In this document: positions 1-7,327 of the stretch, one piece after another
How the letters are laid out: each line of letters opens with the position of its first letter
Numbering within the stretch: position 1 is the first letter of the stretch
Virus record (IMG/VR): IMGVR_UViG_2778261418_000025
Span: 1-7,327 of that record
Source of the DNA: a virus
Lineage: Duplodnaviria; Heunggongvirae; Uroviricota; Caudoviricetes
Direction: 5' to 3' (one strand)
DNA: 7,327 nucleotides
Notes under the pieces: generated by a model
Seen by the model: only the letters and a program-made list of their open reading frames with translations
Told to the model about the DNA's origin: nothing
Databases searched by the model: none
Program-made: the position numbers and the translations under genes

Positions 1-333
1 TTACTGGCAGGCTTTTTGTCCAATGTAGTATGCAATTGAGCGGTCAACTATAGGGGCCATATTTGGATCTGGTGCTGAGTTATTCATCTGCTCGATGGTC
101 TCACCGTCTCCAAGATATTTAACTGTCCCGGCAGTACAGTCGTACAGCCGCTTTGAATATGATGTTCCAGACGGCCCCTTTCTTTCAGTTGTTATAGTAG
201 CCATGCTGCCGTCGCGAGTCTTATCTAAAATCGTGTAACTAGCCTTCGTATCTGTTGGCACATAAACAACCTCAGCCGCAAACACATTAAATGAAACTGC
301 TGCCCCTACAGCTAATATAATGAAATTTTTCAT
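1..333 (-). CDS. Small secreted protein of unknown function (about 110 aa precursor with N-terminal signal peptide); cargo/moron candidate downstream of tfa
   Basis: ATG at 333..331 with AGGA about 8 nt upstream; the track ORF 1..393 starts at TTG (393) and is probably over-extended. Product begins MKNFIILAVGAAVSFNVFAAEVV (basic residue, hydrophobic core, AxA-like site, no lipobox Cys). Two Cys in the mature part. Stop codon at 1..3. Region looks AT-richer than the rest by eye. Confidence 0.55.
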   Translation of the reverse strand: MKNFIILAVGAAVSFNVFAAEVVYVPTDTKASYTILDKTRDGSMATITTERKGPSGTSYSKRLYDCTAGTVKYLGDGETIEQMNNSAPDPNMAPIVDRSIAYYIGQKACQ

Positions 334-1405: not shown

Positions 1406-2542
1406 TCAGGAATAACACCCGACGGATACGCGATGGCCAGTAAAGGATATGCGCTGCACGTCCTCTGCATACTCGTTGCCCTGTTCCGTAATTTCATAGG
1501 CCAGACGAACAACCAGATCACGGCGGGCAACCAGTGCACCGCCCTGCGCCTGGGTATATGCAGCCCAGTCCCCGACATCAGCAGCGGCCAGAACCGCATC
1601 CATTCTGCGATCGGTCAGCACCTGATCCCGCAACCGACGCAGCTCACGCCAGACAGTTACCGGCGCACCACCAATCTGCTGAAACTGACGAATACGCCAG
1701 CGTGAAGCCCATGCAGAAACGGACTTAGCCATATCACGCAGGTTTTCGCCGGTTTCTTCGTCATGCTCACCATCCAGCGCAAAACCATCAATATTTTTTG
1801 AAATGTATTTCGCGATGTAGCCCGTGGCCGAACCTTTGGCGGGATCGATAGCTTCAACATGAAAACGCGCCTTCAGCGCCTTTTCAGATTGCAGTTCTTC
1901 AGAATCGGTAATTCTGGCGTGATAGCAAAGAATATCGCGTACCGTGTCCACGTCATGCGGACGCATAAAAAGCAACATATGCCAGTGCGGTGTCCCGTCA
2001 TGGTGAGGCTCAACAACCCGAAACCCAAATACATGAATACCCGCACGCGAGATCGCTGCGCGTGCTTTTGCCCATACGCCGCATAAATAGCGCTGGGTAT
2101 CCTGCGGCGTACATCCATCCCATTGCGATACAAAGCCACCTTTGCTGTGCACTGCGTGGAAACGTGATGGCGCGGTGATGGTGTAAAACTCACCGGCCAG
2201 CCCTTCTTCATTGGCCATATCTTCAAACCCTCGCATTCTTACCATTAGTTCACATCGACGGATCGCCGGATTTGCAACGCTGCGGTGCACCATGCTGTCC
2301 AGTGCAATGCGCAGCCCCTCATCATTCAGCAGATCAAACTTTTTAAAGAACTCCAGATTCCGCTTTTTCTGGTCTATCCATTCGTCCAGTGTTTTGCGGG
2401 ATACATAAGCGCTGGCCGCTTTTTGTACCTGTCCCACCGCGATGGCCATATGTTCGCGCTGCATATCACGCGCACGTTTAAGACGTAGGTACCACCATTC
2501 CGGCGCCATCATGCGCAGTATCCCGGATTCCGCCTTACGCAT
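1406..2542 (-). CDS. A: Rolling-circle replication initiator gpA (P2 A family HUH endonuclease), internal fragment lacking expected N- and C-terminal regions
   Basis: Contains [17 protein letters not shown] (HUH-type metal site) and [13 protein letters not shown] (paired catalytic Tyr), hallmarks of P2 gpA / phiX174 A-type initiators. At 378 aa it is about half the length I recall for P2 A. The frame is open only 15 codons upstream of the ATG at 2542 (stop at 2588-2590), and the ORF ends by abutting the fibre fragment. Confidence 0.75.
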
Positions 2543-3204
2543 TTCCAGTTGACCTTCATTGGCCTCATGTTCAGCCCAGTACCGCGCTCATGGTAAGCGG
2601 TGAAATTGTCGCTTTCAGTCAGATAAGGCGGATCACAGTAAACAACGTCATTCCCGTCCCGAACCAAATCGAGCGTTTCTGAATAGTGGGCAGTAATGAA
2701 CGTTGCGCGTTTCGCTTTTTCAGCAAAGGCACGGATTTCATCAGCGGGAAAATAAGGCTTTTTGTACTTACCGAACGGGACGTTGAACTGGCCTCGGCGA
2801 TTATACCGGCACAGGCCATTGAAGCAGTGGCGATTCAGGTACAGGAAACGCGCAGCATTTTCAACAGATTCAGAACCGGCCTTACCACCAGAAAGATTGA
2901 AAGCATCACGCACTGCGTAATAGAAAATGGCACGGCTTTCTTCATCACCTAACGAACCGGCAGTAAACAGGATCTCCAGCTCATTCAGCAGCGCATCAGT
3001 GTGATACGCCATCGCCTTATAAAGATTAACCAGATCAGGATTCACATCTGCGATCAGATACTCGTCATAATCCGTATTCATCATGACAGCGCAGGAACCT
3101 GCGAACGGTTCAACCAGGCGTTTACCTTCTGGAAGGTGCGGACGCAGCATAGGCATAATGCGGGCTTTGCTGCCCACCCATTTAAGCGGAGTTTTTATTG
3201 CCAT
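2509..3204 (-). CDS. dam: DNA adenine methyltransferase (Dam family), 3'-disrupted: native sequence to about 2588, then about 25 out-of-frame codons
   Basis: ATG at 3204..3202 with AAGG upstream; the track ORF starts at TTG 3225. Product MAIKTPLKWVGSKARIM...LVEPFAGSCAVMMNTDY...LYLNRHCFNGLCRYNRRGQFNVPFGKYKKPYFPADE...VVYCDPPYLTESDNFTAYHE parallels E. coli Dam through the DPPY motif. The following tail ([25 protein letters not shown]) uses rare codons (AGG, CGG, GGA) and ends where E. coli Dam would continue about 70 aa. Confidence 0.8.
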   Translation of the reverse strand: MAIKTPLKWVGSKARIMPMLRPHLPEGKRLVEPFAGSCAVMMNTDYDEYLIADVNPDLVNLYKAMAYHTDALLNELEILFTAGSLGDEESRAIFYYAVRDAFNLSGGKAGSESVENAARFLYLNRHCFNGLCRYNRRGQFNVPFGKYKKPYFPADEIRAFAEKAKRATFITAHYSETLDLVRDGNDVVYCDPPYLTESDNFTAYHERGTGLNMRPMKVNWKCVRRNPGYCA

Positions 3205-3428
3205 GCCGCACCGCCTTTGCTGCAAATCGCCGCGGCTTCTTCGCGGATCAACTCAACGATTTCCGTTGCGCTTAAACCTTCATTGGCTGCATGGGTGGCC
3301 AGCTTATTCAGACGGGTGGAACACAAATCAGCAGCAGCGGCTTTACCTTCCTGCGTGGCTTTGGTGAGCATTGCCAGCAGGTCAGTGACTGATTTTGTTG
3401 CGGGTAAATCCTGACGTGTCATATGCAT
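3195..3428 (-). CDS. Hypothetical Ala-rich 77-aa protein, translationally coupled to dam
   Basis: ATG at 3428 with AAGGA 7 nt upstream. Its stop overlaps the dam start by 10 nt (ATGGCAATAA). No recognisable motif. Confidence 0.5.
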   Translation of the reverse strand: MHMTRQDLPATKSVTDLLAMLTKATQEGKAAAADLCSTRLNKLATHAANEGLSATEIVELIREEAAAICSKGGAAWQ

Positions 3429-3495
3429 TTTGGTTTCCTTAAGGCAAAAGAATCCCCGGCCACTTGAAACATGGCCAAAAAATTCAGGCGGTTAA

Positions 3496-3897
3496 TTAGT
3501 GAAAAGTGGGGTGTACTGTGGCAGCTGAGTAGTTCGGTACCGGAATCAGGTGCAGTTCATAGGTTGTCCGCCACCACTCCTGGATCAGTGCATTTATCTC
3601 GCCAACTCCCAGCGCCCCGGCTGTATAGAAAATCGCACGAATCCCCGCCAGCGCTTCTATCTGGGCTTCTTTGCTTTCCGCTTCGCGATACACGCAGCAC
3701 CAGAAAGCGGCATTGATCGCCAGCCAGTGACGCGGATTCGTCATGTGCTCGGTGTCATTGAAGAAGAACGGATGCAAAGCGATGCGGCCATTTTTACTGG
3801 TGCTTTTCTCTGTAAACACTACAGCGTAGTTATGCGGGACACCCCACACAGCCAGTTCAGCCCCCAACGATTTACCCTCAACGGAAATAATGGTCAT
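3496..3897 (-). CDS. Hypothetical early-operon protein, 133 aa
   Basis: ATG at 3897..3895 overlaps the stop of the upstream ORF (TAATG). Coding-like codon usage. No recognisable motif. Confidence 0.55.
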   Translation of the reverse strand: MTIISVEGKSLGAELAVWGVPHNYAVVFTEKSTSKNGRIALHPFFFNDTEHMTNPRHWLAINAAFWCCVYREAESKEAQIEALAGIRAIFYTAGALGVGEINALIQEWWRTTYELHLIPVPNYSAATVHPTFH

Positions 3898-4325
3898 TAG
3901 TGATTCCCCTGTTGCTGGAACTTATGGACGATATGAGGTGCAATCACCATCTGTACCCCACTACTGCTATAAATTGGATGTGCCTTTTTGATCGGGCGGT
4001 TCGCGGTGCGCTTTGAAAAATCGCTGTCACGTAAACTGCCGAAACCTTCAAACGTTAACCGCGCCCGTGAAATGCCCTGGCGCAGTTGAATCATGTCCCG
4101 ATAGCCCAGGCGTTCATAAATCTCACGCCAGCAACATTTGCTTAAGTGGGCTTTAAATGCCCCGGAACCAGAAGTAACCGCAGCAGCATGAAGCACCACG
4201 CCGCGCCACTCCGGTGTTAAGTTGTCCCACCATTCAGCGGCCTCGCTGCTTTCGTTGAAGTATTTGCGGCGGATCTGTTTTAAATGCTCCAGCCCGCGCT
4301 TTTGCTGTTCCTGGCTAATCGCCAT
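3897..4325 (-). CDS. Hypothetical early-operon protein, about 142 aa from ATG 4325 (track gives 207 aa from a GTG at 4520)
   Basis: ATG at 4325..4323 preceded by GGGGG 4 nt upstream. The 65 codons upstream in the same frame contain several rare codons (AGG, AGA x2, ATA, GGG) and overlap a better-looking 57-aa ORF in another frame, so the long GTG-initiated model is probably an over-extension. Confidence 0.5.
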   Translation of the reverse strand: MAISQEQQKRGLEHLKQIRRKYFNESSEAAEWWDNLTPEWRGVVLHAAAVTSGSGAFKAHLSKCCWREIYERLGYRDMIQLRQGISRARLTFEGFGSLRDSDFSKRTANRPIKKAHPIYSSSGVQMVIAPHIVHKFQQQGNH

Positions 4326-4333
4326 AACGCCCC

Positions 4334-4507
4334 CTATAGTCCCATCAGACGACGCCACCACGGGCGGCGCGGCTGCTGGCCATTGAATTTGTACATGTGG
4401 CCAGGGTTCCAGCGCTGACCGTTTGGCAGTTCTATCCAGCCCGTTGAACCACTCGGCAACTGCATGGCTGGTGATTCTTTTTTCAGGTAAGTGACAAACG
4501 CTTTCAT
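4334..4507 (-). CDS. Small hypothetical protein, 57 aa (MKAFVTYLKKESPAMQLPSGSTGWIELPNGQRWNPGHMYKFNGQQPRRPWWRRLMGL), not in the supplied ORF track
   Basis: ATG at 4507..4505 with GAGGGA 6 nt upstream, 9 nt after the cII stop. Codon usage is typical (CTG, CCG, CGC, CGT, CAG, GGC). Stop TAG at 4336..4334 overlaps the SD of the next gene. Confidence 0.5.
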   Translation of the reverse strand: MKAFVTYLKKESPAMQLPSGSTGWIELPNGQRWNPGHMYKFNGQQPRRPWWRRLMGL

Positions 4508-4516
4508 GGTGTTCCC

Positions 4517-5020
4517 TCACATCAGGCCGGTGGCGTTGGTTGTGACCAGCTCCACCGCCGCAGCCAGAACAGGCGCAGAGTGAATACGGCTTTCAACGGT
4601 ATAAGCCAGCACGGATAAGCTACGGATTGCATCGCGGGCACGATCCAGAATTTGAGTACGGCGGGCGGCAGTCATATAGCCAGTTGATACGGCTTCCCCA
4701 GCAATCGCGCCCACACTGGCTGTGGCACTCAGTGCGCACAACTGCATGTTGCCTTCTGTGGCATTGTTCACCGGCACGGATGGAAGGCAGTTAATCTGAC
4801 CTAACATCCCATCAAGCAAACGCGCATCTTCGGTGTAATCCGTGATAGCCAAAAGCTCATCACAGGTCAGGCGGTGCGGTTGTGCTGGGTTCAGTTTGTT
4901 GCGCAGGATCTGCGGCCTCATACCAACGGCAGCGGCCACATCTTCAAGATTGTGCTCAATTGCAAATGCTCGGCAAGCCGCATCAAAGTGCGCATGTTTA
5001 GAGGTCTGGTAATCAAACAT
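4517..5020 (-). CDS. cII: CII-like transcriptional activator of lysogeny (phage 186 CII family), 167 aa
   Basis: MFDYQTSKHAHFDAACRAFAIEHN...GMRPQILRNKLNPAQPHRLTCDELLAITDYTEDARLLDGMLGQINCLP matches my recollection of 186 CII (MFDFQVSKHPHYDEACRAFA...GMRPQVLRNKLNPEQPH...). ATG at 5020 with GGGAGAGG 6 nt upstream. Confidence 0.8.
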   Translation of the reverse strand: MFDYQTSKHAHFDAACRAFAIEHNLEDVAAAVGMRPQILRNKLNPAQPHRLTCDELLAITDYTEDARLLDGMLGQINCLPSVPVNNATEGNMQLCALSATASVGAIAGEAVSTGYMTAARRTQILDRARDAIRSLSVLAYTVESRIHSAPVLAAAVELVTTNATGLM

Positions 5021-5050
5021 TGTTTGCCTCTCCCGAATCCGTAGGATGGA

Positions 5051-5272
5051 TTACGCGTTAAGCGAAATGTCACATTCGCTTAAAGCCTGAATAGTGAGCG
5101 CGGCCATGTTGACTTCGACCAAGCCTTTCTTCTGCTTACCCTTCGGCTTAATAGGTAATTTCCCGTATTCGATCAGGTTCCTGGCGGTTTCTTTGTTGGT
5201 ACCAGTACGGCGGCAATACTCGTCTAAAGGCAGGTATGGCTCAGGGATGATGATTGTAATGTTCGGACGCAT
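5051..5272 (-). CDS. apl: Apl/Cox-like small DNA-binding protein (excision directionality and lytic-switch regulator), 73 aa from ATG 5272
   Basis: First gene of the leftward operon facing cI, the position of 186 apl / P2 cox. Small and basic (MRPNITIIIPEPYLPLDEYCRRTGTNKETARNLIEYGKLPIKPKGKQKKGLVEV...). ATG 5272 has GGAG 8 nt upstream; the track start at 5305 is a TTG. Assignment is by synteny and size, not recognised sequence. Confidence 0.5.
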   Translation of the reverse strand: MRPNITIIIPEPYLPLDEYCRRTGTNKETARNLIEYGKLPIKPKGKQKKGLVEVNMAALTIQALSECDISLNA

Positions 5273-5343
5273 GAGGCAAACTCCACAAGTTAACCTGTAC
5301 GGCAATACAGGGTTATATAAGGCAACATTCGAAATATGGAGCC

Positions 5344-5372
5344 AGATTAATTCGCGTTTCGAGAAGTGTCAA
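5344..5372 (-). promoter_or_regulatory. Candidate lytic promoter (pR-like) for the apl-cII operon
   Basis: Minus strand: -35 TTGACA (plus 5372..5367), 17-bp spacer, -10 TAATCT (plus 5349..5344), about 65 nt upstream of the apl ATG. The -10 is a weak match, so the exact hexamer is uncertain. Confidence 0.45.
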
Positions 5373-5393
5373 TTTTAATTTCTCGAATCGAGA
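5357..5393. promoter_or_regulatory. Candidate operator: inverted repeats bracketing the -35 element
   Basis: TTCGAGAA (5358-5365) and its exact reverse complement TTCTCGAA (5380-5387) flank the -35, with a second palindrome TCTCGA-a-TCGAGA at 5381-5393. Three TCGAGA-type hexamers lie within 36 bp. Confidence 0.4.
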
Positions 5394-5407
5394 CTTATGG
5401 ATTCGCT

Positions 5408-5989
5408 ATGAGCACATTTAAAATCGACCTAAACGTAGATAGCACACCGATTCTTGACAGGGTGATCGAGGCTTACGGATTTACGCAGAAGTTACAGCTC
5501 GCGGAACATCTGGACATGGCAGCCAGTTCTCTTTCTTCACGCTACAAGCGTGGAGTTTTCCCGGCAGACATTGTCGTGAAATGTGTAGCCGAAACAGGCG
5601 CTAATCTGGAGTGGCTGGCGACAGGACAGGGACGTAAATTTAATGATGATGAATTAGACATACTCAAAATACCGCGCAGCAAGATTGTTGATGGCCAACT
5701 CTATGACGCTGGCACACTTATGCTTGATAAAGTCATCTTCCTGCCTGGTAAGCCCTTACCGCAACAACCGATTTGTGTTCTGGATGGCCTTGTTCAGTAC
5801 ATTGTTGACCAGTCTTATTCTGAAGTTTATGACGATGATTGGTTGGTTGAAGTTGAAGGAAAAACAAGCGTCCGCACTCTTACACGGATTCCGGTACGAA
5901 AAGTCAGAGTTAGCGGTGTTGGTATGGCATTTGATTGCGGAATTGACGACATAAAAATCATAGGCCGCGTTGTTCTGACGATAAAATAA
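5408..5989 (+). CDS. cI: CI-like immunity repressor (phage 186 CI family), 193 aa from ATG 5408
   Basis: MSTFKIDLNVDSTPILDRVIEAYGFTQKLQLAEHLDMAASSLSSRYKRGVFPADIVVKCVAETGANLEWLATGQG matches my recollection of 186 CI (VLDRICEAYGFSQKIQLANHFDIASSSLSNRYTRG...ETGANLQWLLTGEG). C-terminus ...FDCGIDDIKIIGRVV also parallels 186 CI. The track start at 5366 is a GTG with no SD. Confidence 0.85.
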   Translation: MSTFKIDLNVDSTPILDRVIEAYGFTQKLQLAEHLDMAASSLSSRYKRGVFPADIVVKCVAETGANLEWLATGQGRKFNDDELDILKIPRSKIVDGQLYDAGTLMLDKVIFLPGKPLPQQPICVLDGLVQYIVDQSYSEVYDDDWLVEVEGKTSVRTLTRIPVRKVRVSGVGMAFDCGIDDIKIIGRVVLTIK

Positions 5990-5990
5990 A

Positions 5991-7031
5991 ATGAGCGTTC
6001 GTAAACTTCCTACAGGCGAATGGATCGCCGACTTCTACACCGTCAACCGCAGTAATGGCAAGAACGGGAAGCGTATACGTAAAAAATTTGCCACGAAAGG
6101 GGAAGCCCTGGCATTCGAAAACCATACGCTTCAGAAAGTAGACGCAGCTCCGTGGCTGGGTGAAGGGAAGGACAAGCGAACTTTAATAGATCTGATAACA
6201 ATGTGGTATGAACGCCACGGCGTAGCTTTGAGCAATGGCGAAAAGCGTAAAAATGCTATGACCTGGGCGGCGGAATGCATGGGATTCCCGCTGGCCACAG
6301 AATTTAATGCCCAGTTGTTCACAGCCTACCGCGCTAAAAGGCTGGATGGGCATTATGCCCGTACCAACAGAGTATCTAAGGTTTCCCCGAAAACTATGAA
6401 CCTTGAACATGCTTACTTCCTGGCTATGTTCAACGAGCTGAAACGGATTGGTGAATGGTCAGCACCCAACCCACTAGAAAACGTCAGACAGTATCGTACT
6501 GATGAAACCGAAATGGCTTTCCTCACTACCGAAGAAATTGATCGGCTTTTACTGGAATGCAAACGAAGTAAAGTTAAGTACCTAGAATTAGTTGTCAAAA
6601 TCTGCCTTGCTACCGGCGCAAGGTGGAATGAGGCGGCAACGCTGAAAAGCTCCCAGATCGCCGGGGGTAAAGTCACGTTCGTCAAAACCAAAGGGAAGCG
6701 CAACAGAACAATTCCCCTTGATGATGAACTTCTGTCCGAATTACCTGAAACAAAAGGCGCTCTGTTCCCCAAGCCCTGCTACAACGCTTTCCGCTCTGCT
6801 CTGGAACGTGCAGGCATTGAACTCCCCTCCGGCCAGCTTACCCATGTACTGCGCCATACATTTGCCAGCCACTTTATGATGAACGGCGGAAACATTCTGG
6901 TTCTGCAAAAAATTCTCGGCCACGCTGACATCACTATGACAATGCGTTATGCCCATTTCGCCCCAAGCCACCTTGAAGATGCCGTGCGACTTAACCCCTT
7001 AAAATGTCGCAAAAATGTCGCGACAGCTTAG
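5991..7031 (+). CDS. int: Tyrosine site-specific integrase (P2/186 Int family), 346 aa
   Basis: N-terminus MSVRKLPTGEWIADFYTVNRSNGKNGKRIRKKF resembles P2 Int (MAIKKLDDGRYEVDIRPTGRNGKRIRRKF, recalled). Catalytic motifs present: TGARWNEA, HVLRHTFASHF, LGHADITMTMRYAHF. ATG lies 1 nt after the cI stop (TAAaATG). Confidence 0.9.
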   Translation: MSVRKLPTGEWIADFYTVNRSNGKNGKRIRKKFATKGEALAFENHTLQKVDAAPWLGEGKDKRTLIDLITMWYERHGVALSNGEKRKNAMTWAAECMGFPLATEFNAQLFTAYRAKRLDGHYARTNRVSKVSPKTMNLEHAYFLAMFNELKRIGEWSAPNPLENVRQYRTDETEMAFLTTEEIDRLLLECKRSKVKYLELVVKICLATGARWNEAATLKSSQIAGGKVTFVKTKGKRNRTIPLDDELLSELPETKGALFPKPCYNAFRSALERAGIELPSGQLTHVLRHTFASHFMMNGGNILVLQKILGHADITMTMRYAHFAPSHLEDAVRLNPLKCRKNVATA

Positions 7032-7198
7032 AAATACTGCCGAATACTCACAGATATTAACTAACGTAACTTATTGATAACACTGTAAGTTATTGTTTTT
7101 CGTAGATAGTTGATGCTTTATAATATAGCCTGTGCTATATCTGTATGTAATGCAATCATCCCTCAAGGATCGACGGGATTAGCAAGTCAGGAGGTCTT
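7032..7198. other. AT-rich att-proximal region downstream of int (probable prophage end / Int arm-site region); core not identified
   Basis: Immediately 3' of int, where P2-like phages carry attP. Visibly AT-rich with short direct repeats (AATACT at 7033 and 7043; TTATTG at 7071 and 7090) and a TATAAT at 7119-7124. No tRNA-like sequence recognised. Confidence 0.35.
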
Positions 7199-7327
7199 AT
7201 GAATGAGTTCAAGAGGTGTATGCGCGTGTTTAGTCATTCTCCCTTTAAAGTACGGTTAATGCTGCTCTCTATGTTGTGCGATATGGTCAACAACAAACCG
7301 CAGCAAGATAAACCTTCCGATAAATAG
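7199..7327 (+). CDS. Small ORF, 42 aa (MNEFKRCMRVFSHSPFKVRLMLLSMLCDMVNNKPQQDKPSDK), unknown function
   Basis: Consensus SD AGGAGG (7189-7194) 4 nt before the ATG at 7199; stop TAG at 7325-7327. Too short to appear in the ORF track. May lie outside the prophage. Confidence 0.4.
   Translation: MNEFKRCMRVFSHSPFKVRLMLLSMLCDMVNNKPQQDKPSDK

Follow-up and report, generated by a model that had tools for sequence, protein, structure and literature searches.

The 7,327-nt stretch of DNA analysed here (the window) probably represents the larger part of an 8.5-kb remnant left by a 28.9-kb prophage of the 186/P2 family (Peduoviridae). Replication, late control, packaging, head, lysis, and tail functions were lost through three deletions, which would have arisen by illegitimate recombination. 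The deletions spared the entire lysogeny module, namely the cI-int operon, the facing candidate pR promoter with its putative operators, the pR operon, and both att sites with their arm repeats. The anatomy of the element, its identity to uncut prophages, its domain content, and the att duplication are direct observations. The remnant is a product of ordinary, very recent prophage decay and not a new kind of system. It gives a view of early decay at base-pair resolution, with the parent present in other strains, three defined junctions, and several independent products at one site.

The parent prophage and the three deletions

The element is inserted between mntS and mntR of Escherichia coli. 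E. coli CM2010-0578/1 carries a complete prophage with 100% DNA identity to positions 2581-7327 of the window (4,747 nt), and seven complete E. coli genomes have full-length 28.9-kb prophages at the mntS-mntR site that match this stretch at 100%. The stretch contains int, cI, the gene at the apl position, cII, fil, and attL. The initial annotation had left room for inactivating mutations to emerge on careful alignment; none was present relative to the uncut prophage. At least 24 independent contigs carry the same remnant, among them the complete chromosome CP057725.1.

Alignment with the full-length prophages resolved the missing phage DNA, roughly 20 kb in total, into three deletions of 780 bp, 16,571 bp, and 3,021 bp. 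Their junctions lie at positions 2581-2586 (within the dam' region), 1448-1452, and 458-459 (within the tail-fibre assembly gene), with microhomologies of 6, 5, and 2 nt, respectively. An IS element was considered as the source of the 780-bp length difference and was ruled out; the window carries a plain deletion. Both ends of replication gene A, the C-terminus of Dam, the late activator, and most of the tail fibre were deleted, together with all head, lysis, and tail genes. The earlier description of a gutted prophage with truncated replication and structural genes was thus confirmed.

The truncated genes all lie on the minus strand. The replication endonuclease fragment A' (1406-2542) is missing both ends; it covers positions 69-320 of 321 of the Phage_GPA profile, and of the 673 residues of the intact protein, about 180 at the N-terminus and about 113 at the C-terminus are gone. 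The truncated adenine methylase gene dam' (2509-3204) matches only positions 1-203 of 253 of the MethyltransfD12 profile and is short of about 81 C-terminal residues. The tail-fibre gene is reduced to a C-terminal fragment (925-1404) encoding 159 of 525 aa, with a phrog_295 match at the C-terminal end only, and the segment 458-1452 is 100% identical to the intact prophage. The tail-fibre assembly gene (371-925, phrog_105) has a changed C-terminus, its product being 184 aa in the window versus 195 aa in the intact phage.

Integrase and repressor genes

The initial annotation had listed int, cI, apl, and cII as full length, and all four were found as uninterrupted ORFs, with Pfam matches over nearly full profiles for int, cI, and cII. 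The cI gene (5408-5989, plus strand) encodes an intact 186-type immunity repressor of 193 aa with an N-terminal Phage_CI_repr helix-turn-helix domain and a C-terminal Phage_CI_C oligomerisation domain (Pfam), the two domains of CI of coliphage 186. The protein shares 45% identity with 186 CI and matches the sequence of its crystal structure (PDB 2fjr) over residues 12-189 with E=1.4e-39. A 207-aa form of cI starting with GTG at 5366 is probably spurious. The int gene (5991-7031, plus strand) encodes an intact tyrosine integrase of 346 aa that matches the Pfam profiles Int_N and Phage_integrase. The catalytic residues R211, H285, R288, H311, and Y320 are all present. With these residues, the arm-binding Int_N domain, and 62% identity to 186 Int across 337 aa, the protein belongs to the P2/186 Int group of tyrosine integrases. 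It is identical to WP_000116246.1 of the full-length prophage.

Good start signals had also been claimed for these four genes. This held for the apl-position gene (GGAG) and for cII (GGGAGAGG), but cI has only a weak GGA, and int has no Shine-Dalgarno sequence. The int gene of the window starts 1 nt after the cI stop codon. Because of this spacing and the missing Shine-Dalgarno sequence, translation of int is likely coupled to that of cI, as for the overlapping int and cI genes of 186.

The pR operon

Facing cI-int is a minus-strand operon with a gene for an Apl/Cox-like excisionase-repressor, followed by cII, fil, and three small ORFs. The gene order and orientation (int-cI / apl-cII-fil) are shared with 186. 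The first gene of this rightward operon, as in 186, is the apl-position gene (5051-5272), which is intact and encodes 73 aa. Its product matched phrog_575, annotated as "Cox-like excisionase and repressor," with E=1.5e-27 over profile positions 1-68 of 71, and 186 Apl matched the same profile at 2.8e-9. BLASTP detected no similarity between the two proteins (73 aa versus 87 aa in 186), and the 73-aa protein gave no match to Pfam, NCBIfam, or PDB sequences. Direct pairwise homology to 186 Apl was therefore rejected, PHROG profiles being the only link; the name apl is given by position. A single-sequence AlphaFold model of the protein had a mean pLDDT of 52.9 with two short helices in residues 16-35, and was too poor for a fold search. 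Apl itself acts both as an excisionase and as a repressor of pR and pL (PMC7498355).

The cII gene (4517-5020) is intact and encodes a lysogeny-establishment activator of 167 aa that matches nearly the full Phage_CP76 profile (E=1.8e-46) and is 44% identical to 186 CII. A homologue of fil (4334-4507, 57 aa) follows, with a Phage_186_Fil match of E=3e-10; in 186, fil encodes a cell-division inhibitor. The three early ORFs beyond it (3195-4325) encode proteins of 142 aa (phrog_33841), 133 aa (phrog_3935), and 77 aa (DUF2732). The early region differs from that of 186 by Dam and other ORFs. The region from cII to A had 94-96% DNA identity to Escherichia phages ESSI2_ev015, ESSI2_ev040, and ESSI2_ev129 (Peduoviridae). 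Similarity to the ESSI2 phages stops at about positions 5020-5110, and their cI, apl, and int are therefore of another immunity and integration type. For these phages and Salmonella phage S.Kent 1-2-1 (Peduoviridae), CI was 70-75% and the Apl-like protein 66-82% identical to that of the window.

The switch region

The region between the apl-position gene and cI (5273-5407) contains repeats and conserved hexamers in a geometry like that of the annotated pR and pL of 186. In the ORF map, cI-int and apl-cII(-fil) form opposed operons, the layout annotated in 186. By manual inspection, a candidate pR was placed on the minus strand (TTGACA at 5372-5367, a 17-nt spacer, and TAATCT at 5349-5344). A candidate pL was placed on the plus strand (TTGTAA at 5254-5259, a 17-nt spacer, and CAAACT at 5277-5282), at the distance from the apl start at which pL of 186 is also located. 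We propose that the cI-int operon is transcribed from this weak pL. An automatic sigma-70 scan of positions 4400-7327 reported neither promoter at its threshold and returned one site near attL only.

An inverted repeat (5348-5365/5380-5397) flanks the -35 hexamer of the candidate pR, and a dyad, CCTGTACGGCAATACAGG, lies at 5293-5310. GGCAA motifs occur at 5275, 5301, and 5321. Across seven relatives, the promoter hexamers and the GGCAA motifs are conserved and the arms of the dyad covary; GGCAA at 5275 and 5301 is invariant. The words GGCAAT (5301), GGTTAT (5311), and GGCAAC (5321) resemble the TGGCAA-type repeats in the 186 pR-pL sequence. Apl/Cox proteins would be expected to bind helically phased direct repeats both at att and between pR and pL; we saw no motif common to the switch repeats and the TAAC/TAAG words of the attL arm.

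Immunity and the SOS response

CI made from pL would keep pR off and thereby silence fil, and it would block superinfection by phages with the same operators. The closest CI among 50,697 phage records had 74.6% identity, and none of these records holds an isolated phage with a CI more than 75% identical. Relatives with CI variants carry different operator sequences. With 45% identity to 186 CI and no CI of an isolated phage above 75%, immunity is expected only against the cognate prophage type, and not against 186 or P2. The immunity specificity of 186 differs from that of the window type, and the homoimmunity to 186/P2-type phages suggested in the initial annotation is unlikely.

The 186-type CI has no self-cleavage domain, and 186 is induced through the LexA-controlled antirepressor Tum rather than by CI cleavage (PMC7708051). 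The intact relative carries, between A and ogr, a LexA-boxed ORF (L001 5333-5539) that resembles the N-terminal part of Tum. This 68-aa ORF and the N-terminus of Tum hit the same PHROGs; the ORF lacks the DinI-like C-terminal part found in 186 and is preceded by the box CTGGATATACATACAG at 25-40 nt upstream. Both the ORF and the LexA-like box occur only in the intact phage, in a region that lies inside the 16.6-kb deletion, and a LexA-controlled Tum antirepressor is absent from the window. Because that deletion took the antirepressor ORF, SOS induction of the remnant is predicted to fail. Derepression would be limited to chance events or to cases in which another element provides an antirepressor in trans, and DNA damage should not trigger it.

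The only perfect match to CTGT-N8-ACAG in the window lies within the switch dyad, at 5295-5310. Two relatives have CGAT...ATCG instead, with the two arms altered in concert. Control of the switch by LexA through this site is therefore unlikely, as the arms covary away from CTGT/ACAG, and we read the site as a phage-specific dyad or hairpin. It is improbable that the int-cI-apl module is being actively preserved during decay, with independent deletions repeatedly taking replication and morphogenesis genes and halting at the switch because CI must silence fil and/or confers immunity to circulating cognate phages, and with LexA possibly acting on this dyad. If it were so, LexA at the dyad, where pL and pR overlap, would provide an SOS input that outlasts the loss of the Tum-like antirepressor.

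Attachment sites and excision

The right flank of the window carries the host gene mntS (7199-7327, plus strand), annotated as such in L001 and in K-12, and the host flanks are 99.96-100% identical to K-12 MG1655, which argues against a source organism other than E. coli. When the window was aligned with both the unoccupied K-12 site and the intact attR, the attL core, GCTTTATAATATAGC, fell at 7115-7129. The core overlaps the -10 hexamer (TATAAT, 7119-7124) of the mntS/rybA promoter as well as the left half of an ATATAGC-N4-GCTATAT dyad, and the 5' end of K-12 rybA corresponds to about position 7132. Phage DNA takes the place of the -35 region of the mntS promoter, and the insertion could alter manganese regulation in carrier strains. 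No relevant account of a prophage integrating at mntS turned up in a literature search. The attB of the element, in the mntS promoter, differs from that of 186, which is the ileY tRNA gene.

The 15-bp K-12 core sequence is duplicated, being present at both prophage ends as a direct repeat. The attR core lies outside the window, at window coordinates -1419 to -1405 (about 1.4 kb to the left), and was seen together with its arm in the identical contigs L005 and L012. Candidate arm-type sites for Int, ATGTCGCAAAAATGTCGC, lie in the P' arm at 7004-7021 on the plus strand, inside the 3' end of int. Contig L005 (21 kb) contains two copies of the pattern RTGTCGC-N4-RTGTCGC and no more, one per att arm and in the same orientation, and shuffled sequences gave none. 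The corresponding arm repeat consensus of 186 is YAYCGCCAYTY, in contrast to RTGTCGC here. The attL arm also contains TAAC/TAAG words at 7058, 7067, 7078, and 7086. Since attL, attR, and the paired arm repeats survive, the DNA sites for excision are present. Excision by Int together with the Apl-like protein could still occur and would yield a circle that neither replicates nor can be packaged.

The ORFs might be intact in a module that is silently defective, with distant cis elements or deleted factors being needed for either immunity or excision. CI regulation in 186 uses sites far from pR, and its excision requires host factors and a correct arm architecture (186 record; PMC7498355), and the remnant has lost a large part of its phage DNA. 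We nevertheless regard such a defect as very improbable. The window and the intact phage do not differ anywhere between the attL core and fil, both included, a span that reaches about 900 bp leftward and about 1.8 kb rightward of the switch, and both att arms are present. Furthermore, a 186 fragment from cII to the start of int works as a switch (PMC7708051).

Retention of the module among remnants

Five independently derived remnants at the locus (the window type, L013, L016, 160-11H1, and Combat13F7) keep int-cI-apl-cII, and their deletions all end short of the switch. In remnants L006 and L007, further deletions cut into cII and fil is lost; cI, the switch, and apl are kept. Remnant PSJ-16 lacks cI, the entire early operon (apl, cII, fil, and the other early genes), and the N-terminal half of int. 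Retention is thus not obligatory. The ratio of five remnants with the module to one without it is suggestive, in a sample too small for a test.

As judged from sequence comparison, the intactness of the module is fully explained by the recency of the deletions. It is not evidence of selection, because zero substitutions in 4,747 nt leave no power to detect selection. It is possible, though on balance doubtful, that the module is a neutral leftover with no maintained role, which owes its intact state solely to very recent deletions and is destined to decay, with CI perhaps expressed to no benefit of the host. The lack of substitutions relative to the intact prophage is consistent with this, as are the further deletions that already reach cII and the losses in PSJ-16. 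Homoimmune prophages are also rare, the cognate type at 97.5% identity or more being present in 11 of 5,426 complete E. coli genomes. The five remnants whose deletions stop short of the switch weigh on the other side, within the limits of that small sample.

Alternatively, cI might be kept mainly because its loss is harmful. Such a loss would derepress pR and lead to synthesis of Fil, and possibly of other toxic early products; immunity would then be a by-product, and the survivors would be deletions that spare cI or remove it with the whole pR operon. The fil homologue does lie directly downstream in the pR operon, and overexpression of Fil blocks cell division (186 record). PSJ-16, the sole remnant without cI, also lacks every early gene, and the remnants with truncated cII still retain cI, the switch, and apl. 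However, L006 and L007 keep cI in the absence of fil, which would also be expected if those deletions were simply recent, and the toxicity of the Fil homologue is presumed by analogy with 186. Overall, we consider this explanation rather unlikely.

Recent prophage decay is the preferred reading; within it, selection against deletions that take cI and leave pR-fil in place is a plausible, unproven constraint. The remnants at this locus form a natural series for asking whether repressor genes are kept by selection, for immunity or for silencing toxic early genes, or by chance. Rac (RacR) is a cryptic prophage that keeps a working repressor. In Qin (DicA) and a lambdoid prophage of E. coli Nissle 1917, both defective, the repressor is reported to silence toxic early genes and/or guard against related phages (PMC5987069; bioRxiv 10.1101/708461, 10.1101/2023.04.14.536235). 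The Rac, Qin, and Nissle 1917 prophages are old, diverged lambdoid elements with experimentally tested functions, whereas the remnant in the window is of the 186 type and undiverged from its intact parent.

The left end of the window

Positions 1-453 seemed unmatched at first and were considered as foreign DNA. This was ruled out, the segment being the prophage's own orf110 region, which adjoins tfa because of the 3,021-bp deletion. PADLOC gave no defence-system matches for orf110, an acetyltransferase, two early ORFs, or CI. The orf110 gene (1-333, minus strand; phrog_13843, E=3.4e-47) is a secreted-looking cargo gene near the attR end and is found in intact prophages and in remnants.

Parent prophage and deletions

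In a megablast search of 5,426 complete E. coli genomes, window positions 1448-7327 matched seven at 99.9-100% identity, one 780-bp gap excepted. In all seven, the matching sequence was part of a full-size prophage with P2-family capsid, terminase, portal, ogr, and tail genes, located between mntS and mntR. When the window was aligned to a composite reference built from strain CM2010-0578/1, it proved to be the prophage of that strain less three segments of 780 bp (junction at 2581-2586, 6-nt microhomology), 16,571 bp (1448-1452, 5 nt), and 3,021 bp (458-459, 2 nt). The retained DNA was 100% identical to the reference with only one mismatch, in 1448-2586, and the element is reduced from ~28.9 kb to ~8.5 kb. 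No IS scar was present at any of the three junctions, which, together with the 2-6 nt of microhomology at each, points to illegitimate recombination and not to transposon-mediated deletion.

From the ORF map and family searches, the genes of the window are, from right to left, mntS (7199-7327, +), int (5991-7031, +), cI (5408-5989, +), a 73-aa gene at the apl position (5051-5272, -), cII (4517-5020, -), fil (4334-4507, -), three small early ORFs (3195-4325, -), a truncated dam (2509-3204, -), a fragment of replication gene A (1406-2542, -), the C-terminal end of a tail-fibre gene (925-1404, -), a tail-fibre assembly gene (371-925, -), and a 110-aa cargo ORF, orf110 (1-333, -). No tRNA genes were found in the window. 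Of its 673 residues, A lacks ~180 at the N-terminus and ~113 at the C-terminus, and Dam lacks ~81 C-terminal residues, its Pfam match covering only profile positions 1-203 of 253. The deletions also took the late activator and the portal, terminase, capsid, lysis, tail, and baseplate genes. The description of the prophage as gutted in the initial annotation is therefore borne out, and the element represents ordinary, very recent prophage decay of a known kind.

Integration and immunity genes

The same annotation described int, cI, apl, and cII as apparently full length, and this is the case: their DNA does not differ from that of uncut prophages, so they carry no inactivating mutations relative to them. 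Int has the Int_N and Phage_integrase domains, is 62% identical to 186 Int, and keeps R211, H285, R288, H311, and Y320. Both the HTH and the C-terminal domain of CI are of the 186 type; the protein shares 45% identity with 186 CI and matches the sequence of its solved structure (2fjr, E=1.4e-39). CII, a CP76-family protein, shares 44% identity with its 186 counterpart. The name "apl" is the weak point of this labelling. The 73-aa protein had no BLASTP match to 186 Apl and none in Pfam, NCBIfam, or PDB sequences; it matched the whole profile of phrog_575, "Cox-like excisionase and repressor" (E=1.5e-27), to which 186 Apl was also assigned (E=2.8e-9). This match and its first place in the rightward operon make an Apl/Cox-like role likely. 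The protein (WP_001247709.1) is identical across relatives in which CI has 77-99% identity to that of the window (L020, L022-L025), so the putative excisionase-repressor is far more conserved than the immunity repressor within this phage group.

The good start signals claimed for the four genes were found for apl and cII, as well as for fil, but not for cI, whose ribosome-binding site is weak, or int, which has none. Since int starts 1 nt past the cI stop, translational coupling of the two genes is suggested, as in 186.

Attachment sites and induction

A three-way alignment of the window, the unoccupied K-12 site, and the far end of the intact prophage, together with mapping of duplicated K-12 sequence, gave a 15-bp att core: GCTTTATAATATAGC at attL (7115-7129) and GCTATATAATATAGC at attR, which lies 1.4 kb beyond the left edge of the window in the identical loci L005 and L012. 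The tandem repeat RTGTCGC-N4-RTGTCGC occurred exactly twice in the 21-kb locus, one copy per att arm in the same orientation, and never in shuffled sequence; these repeats make good candidate Int arm-type sites. With the duplicated core and the arm repeats, the DNA substrates for excision are present.

The core is also the -10 region of the mntS/rybA promoter and overlaps an ATATAGC-N4-GCTATAT dyad (window 7115-7140; L004 5068-5082), which resembles the MntR operator. Integration keeps the -10 region and the dyad, puts phage DNA in place of the -35 region, and parts mntS from the divergent mntR, so mntS regulation may differ in carrier strains.

Induction of 186 requires the LexA-controlled antirepressor Tum (PMC7708051). 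Between A and ogr, the intact relative carries an unannotated 68-aa ORF (L001 5333-5539, -) that shares its PHROG matches with the Tum N-terminus (phrog_698, E=3.8e-22) and is 32% identical to Tum residues 5-42, with a LexA-like box, CTGGATATACATACAG, just upstream (L001 5564-5579). The ORF resembles the N-terminal, antirepressor part of Tum and is without the DinI-like C-terminal half. It falls within the 16.6-kb deletion, so the remnant should not respond to SOS.

Switch region

An automatic promoter scan returned nothing at its threshold in the switch region (5273-5407). By eye, we picked a candidate pR (-), TTGACA (5372-5367) and TAATCT (5349-5344) with a 17-nt spacer, and a candidate pL (+), TTGTAA (5254-5259) and CAAACT (5277-5282), also with a 17-nt spacer. 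Relative to the apl start, the latter is placed just as pL is in 186 (TTGCGA-17-CATGAT). The two candidates are face-to-face, overlap by roughly 50 nt, and have hexamers conserved across seven relatives with differing CI proteins. An inverted repeat (5348-5365/5380-5397) lies on both sides of the candidate pR -35, and this region is altered in relatives with a different CI.

Other motifs were observed here. The dyad CCTGTACGGCAATACAGG (5293-5310) includes a perfect CTGT-N8-ACAG; in two relatives its arms change together to CCGATA...TATCGG around an invariant centre, CGGCAA. Possible readings of the dyad are a CI operator at pL, a hairpin in the transcript, and, in this immunity type, a LexA site. 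The operator-like ATCGAGACTTATGGATT (5387-5403) adjoins the cI start and recurs with 88% identity within cI, 78 bp further downstream, as ATCGAGGCTTACGGATT (5465-5481), possibly a flanking CI site like FL of 186. GGCAA motifs at 5275, 5301, and 5321 are invariant or nearly so among relatives; those at 5301 and 5321, with GGTTAT at 5311 between them, are spaced by one helical turn. They are similar to the TGGCAA-type repeats in the pR-pL interval of 186, where Apl binds.

Immunity range

Among 50,697 phage records, the closest CI was 74.6% identical, and the module occurred at ≥97.5% identity in 11 of the 5,426 complete E. coli genomes. Homoimmunity would be expected only against that rare prophage type. 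The observation in the initial annotation is confirmed. The proposed immunity to 186-like phages is plausible for the cognate phage and not expected for 186 itself, given the 45% CI identity; the proposed excision is likewise plausible from the att cores and arm repeats, and SOS induction is predicted to fail, with the Tum-like ORF deleted.

Distribution of the remnant and related elements

At least 24 contigs from NCBI, ENA, and Logan assemblies encode the chimeric A' protein. Contig JAFMWU010000004.1 (L005) and the complete chromosome CP057725.1 (L012) matched the window at 100% identity, and the host flanks were 99.96-100% identical to K-12 MG1655. Two loci (L006 and L007) hold the same remnant with extra deletions that take fil and the cII C-terminus. 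Independently derived remnants occupy the same site in L013 and L016, each left by a single deletion (23.7 kb and 21.9 kb, respectively), and in 160-11H1 and Combat13F7. The int-cI-apl-cII block is retained in all four; PSJ-16 is without cI, the entire early operon, and the int N-terminus. The repeated retention of the switch in independent remnants may reflect constraint.

Near attR, members of this prophage family differ by strain in their cargo (L027 3056-3820; L014 10911-13955; L028 580-4553), and this end has the look of a variable hotspot. There, 160-11H1 carries a reverse-transcriptase-domain protein, L014 and L015 carry DprA-like and DUF6680 genes, Combat13F7 carries DUF6338 and others, and the window type carries orf110 with a hexapeptide acetyltransferase, a cargo that PADLOC matched to none of its systems. 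Fragments of the same phage (lysis genes, orf110, and acetyltransferase), without int or cI, were also found between the sbcB/dacD and cobS/cobT regions (L019, ABWKZF010000001.1, 5805-11650), and are another decayed copy at a second chromosomal site.
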